Below are positions 1,261 through 1,310 of a stretch of 14,640 nucleotides of DNA, in pieces. The notes under the pieces are model-generated. The model was not told where the DNA came from, searched no databases, and saw only the letters and a program-made list of their open reading frames with translations. Each line of letters opens with the position of its first letter. Within the stretch, counting starts at the first letter, position 1. The position numbers were made by a program, and so were the translations under genes. The stretch is from a virus. Taxonomy: Duplodnaviria; Heunggongvirae; Uroviricota; Caudoviricetes. The DNA lies in the IMG/VR virus record IMGVR_UViG_2630968342_000015. The stretch is one strand, 5' to 3'.

Positions 1261-1310
1261 ACAGATACAACGTGCAACAATGAGCAACAATGCGGAACAA
1301 CTACGAACAA
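1261..1310 (-). repeat. Five tandem 10-bp units, minus-strand reading TTGTTCGTAG TTGTTCCGCA TTGTTGCTCA TTGTTGCACG TTGTATCTGT
   Basis: ACAA recurs with exact 10-bp periodicity at 1267-1270, 1277-1280, 1287-1290, 1297-1300, 1307-1310. The first two minus-strand units differ at 3 of 20 positions from the plus-strand array at 6862-6881. Confidence 0.55.

Follow-up and report, generated by a model that had tools for sequence, protein, structure and literature searches.

The analyzed window (the whole stretch of 14,640 nucleotides) is an almost complete capsid-forming phage-inducible chromosomal island (cf-PICI) of the EcCIEDL933 type, 14.6 kb in size, inserted in E. coli tqsA, and is identical to the segment that splits this gene in E. 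coli G1/2. Its genes follow the order int, alpA, a D5-type primase-helicase gene, origin repeats, the SSB and PerC genes, and a head operon that runs from the capsid gene to the large terminase gene. The two halves of tqsA, which encodes an AI-2 transporter, were located at 14497-14640 of the window and at 907-1812 of L001. Comparison of the junctions placed the attL core ATAACAGCA ∼190 bp to the left of the window start. Other integration sites, beside roxA and abgR, are occupied by close relatives whose integrases are 84-91% identical. The features discussed below are listed in Table 1; alignment A1 comprises 11 versions of the int-alpA spacer with 69-100% identity.

Table 1. Coordinates of the features in the window and, where indicated, in L001.
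Feature	Position	Strand	Description and basis
int	1-1218	+	P4-type tyrosine integrase; Pfam Arm-DNA-bind_3 and Phage_integrase; RefSeq start 12 nt further upstream
Conserved T-rich non-coding stretch	1219-1235		directly after the int stop codon; nearly invariant columns in A1
Perfect 16-bp palindrome CAGTATGCGCATACTG	1236-1251		lineage-specific; sequence and A1
Array	1261-1310	-	five 10-bp units, TTGT(T) on the minus and ACAA on the plus strand; proposed head-to-tail site for AlpA
Strongly conserved block ACTGGTTTTTTATACACTAGCGAATCACTCTTTAAA	1360-1395		69 bp from the array; invariant in A1 at constant spacing
Bidirectional terminator-like hairpin	1400-1437		9-bp stem 1406-1428, flanked by A6 and TTTGTATT; in both RNA folds
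Promoter-like TTAACA-16-TATCCT	1437-1464	+	candidate alpA promoter; consensus match only
Promoter-like TTGCCA-17-CACAAT with TG	1503-1531	+	candidate alpA promoter; TTTGCCA invariant in relatives
Degenerate 10-bp repeat, ACACAA-like units	1521-1560	+	alpA leader; copy number differs between relatives
alpA	1593-1781	+	62 aa, winged-helix excisionase-type regulator; Pfam Phage_AlpA, E = 1.9e-17; PHROG 'excisionase and transcriptional regulator'
Intrinsic terminator	6821-6838	+	directly abuts the head-operon array; terminator scan
Head-operon sister array	6841-6890	+	five TTGT units, core TTGTTCGTGGTTGTTCCACGTTGTT
Candidate head promoter TTTACC-16-TATTCT	6907-6934	+	weak, position-conserved, possibly activator-dependent; suggested by alignment A2
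attR-arm array	14365-14390	+	three TTGT units; within the att arm beside the arm doublets
Doubled motif GGTGTAGTCAC/TGGTGTAGTCA	14408-14430	+	probable integrase arm-type sites; twin at L001 1942-1964, upstream of int
attR core ATAACAGCA	14503-14511		common to the left junction, followed by the tqsA remnant; junction comparison and split-tqsA annotation
attL-arm array	L001 1899-1932		upstream of int; four TTGT; within the att arm beside the arm doublets

The five units of the array between int and alpA read ACAGATACAA, CGTGCAACAA, TGAGCAACAA, TGCGGAACAA and CTACGAACAA, exactly at the coordinates given in the original prediction. Their ACAA tetramers start at 1267, 1277, 1287, 1297 and 1307, which corresponds to a spacing of exactly 10 bp. 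All five are tandem direct repeats in one orientation, not inverted repeats. The pattern ACAA-N6-ACAA-N6-ACAA, with at most one mismatch, had eight matches in the window, whereas shuffled sequences averaged 0.09, and none of 200 dinucleotide-preserving shuffles reached eight matches. Runs of three or more exactly matching, phased tetramers were confined to four places in the island. A search of viral contigs for five phased ACAA tetramers returned 120 matches; six were of this island lineage and the remainder lay in unrelated low-complexity DNA.

Of 5426 complete E. coli genomes, 878 contain the int-alpA spacer. Within the array, only 2 of the 20 ACAA positions varied among the 11 relatives, compared to 25 of the 30 spacer positions (Fisher p = 2.7e-7), and five to six units were maintained across lineages whose flanks differ by ∼30%. 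The array is real and phased, and its tetramers alone are under purifying selection. The combination of invariant tetramers and drifting spacers points to the footprint of a sequence-specific protein that contacts one face of the DNA. The homology to the head-operon array proposed earlier for the minus strand was borne out in two relatives (L006 and L007): their array downstream of int includes the head-array core TTGTTCGTGGTTGTTCCACGTTGTT, a 25-mer, as an exact reverse complement. The palindrome next to the array is present as described, but it does not deserve the equal weight that it had been given, as it is not conserved outside the closest relatives: it was found in 7 of 11 relatives, while the others, of the EcCICFT073 type, carry a sixth ACAA unit in its place. 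When up to three mismatches were allowed, the palindrome was matched in 16 of 200 shuffles. It is lineage-specific and the evidence for it is weaker, indeed marginal.

The remainder of the spacer contains further conserved elements. Invariant non-coding blocks were observed at 1360-1395 (ACTGGTTTTTTATACA..GAATCACTCTTTAAA) and at 1477-1485 (TTCTGTAAA), and the first of them is partly repeated just upstream of alpA (1562-1584). Reading the first block as an IHF site would be speculation; it matches only seven of the nine defined consensus positions, and fewer in the EcCICFT073 type. The hairpin at 1406-1428 showed a compensatory A-T to G-C change in two relatives, and the element at 1400-1437 fell below the T-run criterion of the terminator scan. 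A 12-mer, TTTGCGATTTTT, occurs after the EcCICFT073 int stop codon as well as after the attR doublets (L015 10641 and 20602; window 14431), and it may be a trace of the origin of the int-downstream region.

A sigma-70 scan returned two plus-strand promoter candidates only, both of them distant from the array (127 or 192 bp), and none on the minus strand. A manual search for a promoter adjoining the array yielded only poor or unconserved hexamers, and no sigma-54 -24/-12 pair was seen by eye at the invariant TTTGCCA. In all 12 relatives, array and TTGCCA were separated by 191-196 bp, despite a divergence of 20-30%. As this spacing varies by up to 5 bp, the helical phase between array and promoter is not strictly kept. 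The distance from TTGCCA to the alpA start codon took the values 71, 80-81, 90-91 or 101 bp among the relatives. In the alpA leader (1521-1592) of one relative, a run of CCCAA pentamers replaces the ACACAA-like units.

The island carries four phased TTGT/ACAA arrays in total: four TTGT in the attL arm, five ACAA downstream of int, five TTGT at the head operon and three TTGT in the attR arm. Both att arms contain a 76-nt direct repeat (D2) in which a TTGT array precedes a doubled 11-bp motif, GGTGTAGTCAC. These GGTGTAGTCA doublets are found ∼88 and ∼145 bp from the att core. Doubled motifs, tgTGTATTGCa twice, have been described for helper-embedded PICIs (HE-PICIs), which belong to the same island family, at 81 and 132 bp from the core (Tommasini et al., PMC10111431), and the P4 record lists tandem 12-bp 'attP arm sequence repeats' at ∼75 and ∼134 bp; the att architecture is the same in all three. 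According to PMC10111431 the doubled motif is restricted to HE-PICIs and absent from other PICIs; the doubled GGTGTAGTCAC motif is nevertheless present here on both att arms. The sequence of the doublets differs by integrase clade, with GTCAC or GTTAA in the clade of the window, TGGTGTATCAC in an island at hpt, TGTATTGC in a helper-embedded island and TGGTCCAAA in a distant element. The TTGT/TGTTYC units beside the doublets remain similar across all these elements. On the basis of their P4-like geometry and of a sequence that changes with the integrase clade, the doublets are probably integrase arm sites. They neighbor the sister arrays and differ from the TTGT array itself; the att arms would hold two probable kinds of site, doublets for the integrase and TTGT arrays for the excisionase.

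The head-operon array is nearly invariant in divergent cf-PICIs that have other integrases, replication modules and integration sites, with flanks that are only ∼60% identical. In L021 (12078-12112) and L022 (13056-13090) it lies ∼200 bp upstream of the capsid gene. A consensus scan found no consensus promoter at the head operon, which fits dependence on an activator; relative to the candidate promoter in Table 1, the array would then be positioned at about -57 to -100, a normal position for an activator. Near-identical intrinsic terminators at 6467-6484 and 6821-6838 (AGCCGGAGnAATCCGGCT followed by a T run) bracket a small gene at 6586-6810. Origin-type repeats, CTGTTCACC, were observed in both orientations at 5250-5480, after the primase gene, and have TGTTCAC in common with the last unit of the head array. 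Replication-origin iterons were considered and rejected: the island has its origin repeats at that other location, and the head array persists where the replication module is of the RepA or DUF927 type.

The alpA gene starts 283 bp downstream of the array and encodes a small winged-helix excisionase of the same element. Its AF2 model had a pLDDT of 87, and the best match in the PDB was the GIsul2 excisionase (8c3t, TM 0.84-0.91), followed by RdfS, Pukovnik Xis, TorI and BldC. Every element that carries TTGT/TGTTYC units encodes an AlpA-like protein, which holds for no other protein of the islands. A search of the genome contigs for AlpA returned only three loci. PerC and the phrog_1957 protein were set aside as binders because each is absent from some array-carrying islands, PerC from L016 and L021 and the phrog_1957 protein from L015, L016 and L017. 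The latter (74 aa, gene 6586-6810) is encoded directly upstream of the head array in all three cf-PICI types examined, with 40% identity. It may be a binder of the head array only, and as islands that lack a head operon do not have it, it could be a factor specific to that operon.

The distribution of the arrays among related islands separates them from the integrase. L016 and L017 have an integrase of the same clade (74% identity) and have kept the arm arrays, but they possess a different alpA module and no int-downstream array, which indicates that this array belongs to alpA and not to recombination. The int-downstream array travels with the alpA module and not with int. The AlpA proteins of L016 and L017 are only 57-60% identical, yet TTGT arrays are kept in their att arms; this retention would fit a conserved recognition helix and a host factor equally well. 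L021, at the hpt site, and L022, in a prophage terminase gene, have integrases of 47% and 40% identity, respectively, and other replication modules. Both have one or two TTGT units in the attL arm, no phased arm array, and a retained head array. No equivalent array of a different tetramer was found upstream of alpA in islands with other alpA types.

Published work on EcCICFT073 bears directly on this region. AlpA activates its own promoter in this element (PMC6092414). When the published primers were mapped, the fragment in the reporter pJP2038 corresponded to L015 10603-11058 and included the six-unit ACAA array of EcCICFT073. A factor of the helper phage triggers alpA transcription by acting on the same fragment, and AlpA alone suffices for excision and replication of EcCICFT073 without a phage (PMC6092414); likewise, AlpA alone suffices for excision of a Vibrio PICMI without a phage. 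The Pint reporter in EcCICFT073 was unchanged by AlpA, in a construct that is blind to antisense effects (PMC6092414). The primers of the Pint reporter of Fillol-Salom et al. gave no mapping on the CFT073 locus examined. A published operator for any PICI AlpA was not found in the literature searched, and TTGT arrays are unmentioned in PMC10111431, the one paper there that analyzed PICI att sites.

Among the closest parallels to the array are the sites of TorI, the best-studied relative of AlpA. The authors of the EcCIMP1 study group TorI with proteins annotated as AlpA family. TorI binds five sites (I1-I5) in attL of the KplE1 (CPS-53) prophage of E. coli K-12; three of them are phased by 10 bp, have the core GTTCG and abut the -35 element of intS, which TorI represses (PMC2951348). 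In the K-12 sequence these sites read cAGTTCGtcat gGTTCGcttc aGATCGttgaca. Like the array, they are direct repeats with 10-bp phasing, and they are bound by a small winged-helix excisionase, as is proposed for the array. TorI, however, represses the int promoter from sites located on it, within attL, whereas the array is found ∼1.45 kb away from the attL core; it follows int, has the inverted polarity and consists of five units with TTGT as the invariant core. Among the array units, one reads TTGTTCG (containing GTTCG) and one TTGTTCC (containing GTTCC), and the invariant TTGT overlaps the TorI core only at GTT.

BldC and RdfS assemble head to tail into filaments on tandem repeats, each turn of the DNA accommodating one monomer (PMC11963761). 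The number of repeats is variable, and recombination is combined with promoter control, across lambda Xis at X1-X1.5-X2, BldC at smeA-ssfA and RdfS (PMC11963761), folds that the AlpA model matches. The RdfS and BldC sites have little sequence consensus, whereas the array has a sharply conserved tetramer. Excisionases that also control promoters of their element through phased repeats include P2 Cox, which acts on phased cox boxes, and P4 Vis. The P4 record calls Vis an 'excisionase and transcriptional regulator', and no phased TTGT or GTTC arrays were found in P4. Cox and Vis mainly repress, while PICI AlpA activates. Phased arrays are thus already known for dual-function winged-helix excisionase-regulators (TorI, Xis, Cox, Vis, RdfS and BldC). 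What would be new is a candidate operator for a PICI AlpA, none having been defined in the literature searched.

Two further systems were rejected as models. The sites of lambda CII, TTGC-N6-TTGC, are tetramers phased by 10 bp at the int promoter and at an antisense promoter. They consist of two repeats that straddle the -35 element, whereas the array has five units of a different tetramer and straddles no promoter, and no CII homologue was present among the island genes. The P. aeruginosa AlpA shares the name and is a positive regulator of a lysis/late pathway, but it is a different and much larger protein: an antiterminator that loads onto RNA polymerase, recognizes a single GGGACG between -35 and -10 and has its DNA-contact residues at 128-142 (PMC9371919, PMC7969949). 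This Q-like protein of eight helices does not resemble the 62-aa excisionase fold and the five-unit array found here.

We propose that the array is a putative AlpA oligomerization site in the alpA control region, with a probability of about 0.5. As the TTGT(T) core recurs once per 10 bp, it would present the same helix face each time, and five AlpA monomers could align head to tail, one per helical turn, as in Xis, TorI, BldC and RdfS. Most likely, once the first AlpA has been made in response to a helper phage, the array would nucleate an AlpA complex that brings about positive autoregulation of alpA, acting from ∼190 bp upstream of the alpA promoter. The four arrays together would then constitute the AlpA regulon of the cf-PICI, in which the two att-arm arrays, beside the integrase arm sites, would serve excision and the head-operon array the activation of late genes. 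The array had been judged to lie over 1.2 kb from the left end, too far for a conventional attL arm. This holds in spirit, although the true attL core is located ∼190 bp further left and the array lies ∼1.45 kb from it. Because of this position outside the att arms, we class the array as a regulatory and not a recombination site of the same protein. Of the two regulatory roles suggested originally, control of alpA gains from the conservation of the phased array in the alpA control region and from its presence in the EcCICFT073 alpA-activation fragment, while no conserved leftward promoter was found for antisense control of int.

We infer that AlpA binds the array and, more weakly, which promoter the array serves and in which direction. 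Several points argue against this reading: the candidate promoters are 127 or 192 bp away with the terminator-like hairpin in between, the array is oriented opposite to those that precede int and the head operon, and the overlap of the invariant TTGT with the TorI core GTTCG is only partial. The autoactivation by AlpA in the reporter could instead be mediated by the ACACAA repeats adjacent to the promoter.

The opposite polarity keeps alive the idea that the AlpA-bound array works leftward, through a promoter for an antisense int RNA at the int end or as a roadblock, so that int is lowered when AlpA is abundant. The minus-strand TTGT polarity is that of the arrays upstream of int and the head operon on their own strands, the minus-strand order of terminator followed by array is the one seen at the head operon, and down-regulation of int by an excisionase has been documented for TorI (PMC2951348). 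However, no conserved -10 or -35 element was found to the left of the array, the promoter scan of the minus strand found nothing, the segment between array and palindrome is variable, the palindrome is missing in EcCICFT073-type islands, and the EcCICFT073 Pint reporter, though blind to antisense effects, was unaltered by AlpA (PMC6092414). In view of the lack of a conserved leftward promoter we rate leftward action, which we regard as rather unlikely, below autoregulation of alpA.

The binder may also be encoded outside the island, and a host winged-helix response regulator of the OmpR, ArcA or PhoP type, or a helper-phage protein (its own excisionase or a PICI inducer), would be an unlikely choice. 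Proteins of the OmpR family bind direct repeats phased by 10-11 bp, and the repeats of ArcA and PhoP are spaced by 11 bp. The array, with its spacing of exactly 10 bp, departs from the latter, and the G of the OmpR motif GxxAC is not conserved in it. The TGTTYC units of the att arms are conserved across islands that differ in both AlpA and integrase, the switching on of alpA by a helper-phage factor involves the same fragment (PMC6092414), and cross-talk of excisionases between PICI and helper has been documented (PMC11773190). Against an outside binder stands the finding that AlpA alone, with no phage present, brings about excision of a PICMI as well as excision and replication of EcCICFT073.

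It appears very unlikely that the array represents extra arm-type sites of the integrase, forming a distant accessory arm of attL. Even with a different AlpA, elements of this integrase clade do have TTGT arrays at both att arms, and P4 has single arm repeats outside its canonical arms, one of them inside int. However, the doubled GGTGTAGTCA motif, P4-like in its geometry and different between integrase clades, already takes the arm role; the arm positions at ∼75-90 and ∼130-145 bp are occupied by these doublets and not by TTGT units. The same clade functions without an int-downstream array in L016 and L017, and the head arrays persist alongside 40-47% identical integrases that lack such arm arrays.

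A non-functional relic of a duplicated att-arm or head-operon array is highly improbable. The homology to the other arrays, with 25 nt identical in reverse complement in relatives, and the T-rich 12-mer TTTGCGATTTTT common to the EcCICFT073 int-downstream region and the attR arm would suit such an origin, but a relic is expected to decay evenly, whereas only the spacers decay and five to six units are retained across lineages with ∼30% flank divergence. Action at the RNA level, by an unstructured CA-rich 3' tail of the int mRNA or an Hfq-type motif, is extremely unlikely: the int transcript probably runs through the array, as the first terminator-like hairpin follows at 1406-1437, but strict 10-nt phasing has no rationale in RNA, the motif occurs in both orientations and in the non-transcribed att arms, and the reading was dropped when the folds of 1205-1445 proved no better than shuffles (z = -0.8 and -0.9 for the two strands); Rfam gave no matches at gathering or permissive thresholds.

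Returning to AlpA as the protein that occupies the array, a wider and rather doubtful extension would have this excisionase-fold protein run the whole life cycle of the satellite through one grammar, phased TTGT units of variable number and polarity. In the att arms they would direct excision, in its own control region they would form an autocatalytic switch, and at the capsid operon they would activate late genes. As this grammar is of the excisionase type, the excisionase of the helper phage might be the trigger, being the first to bind the int-downstream array and switch on alpA. The capsid-operon array would travel with the packaging module between islands of unrelated integrases.

AlpA is the master switch of Gram-negative PICIs, including the cf-PICIs, which spread across species. 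The four arrays offer a concrete candidate for the AlpA operator that can be tested by mutation, and the separation of probable integrase doublets from probable excisionase arrays helps in annotating and engineering these elements. Together, the arrays suggest a simple map of the AlpA regulon that covers excision, self-activation and the capsid genes.
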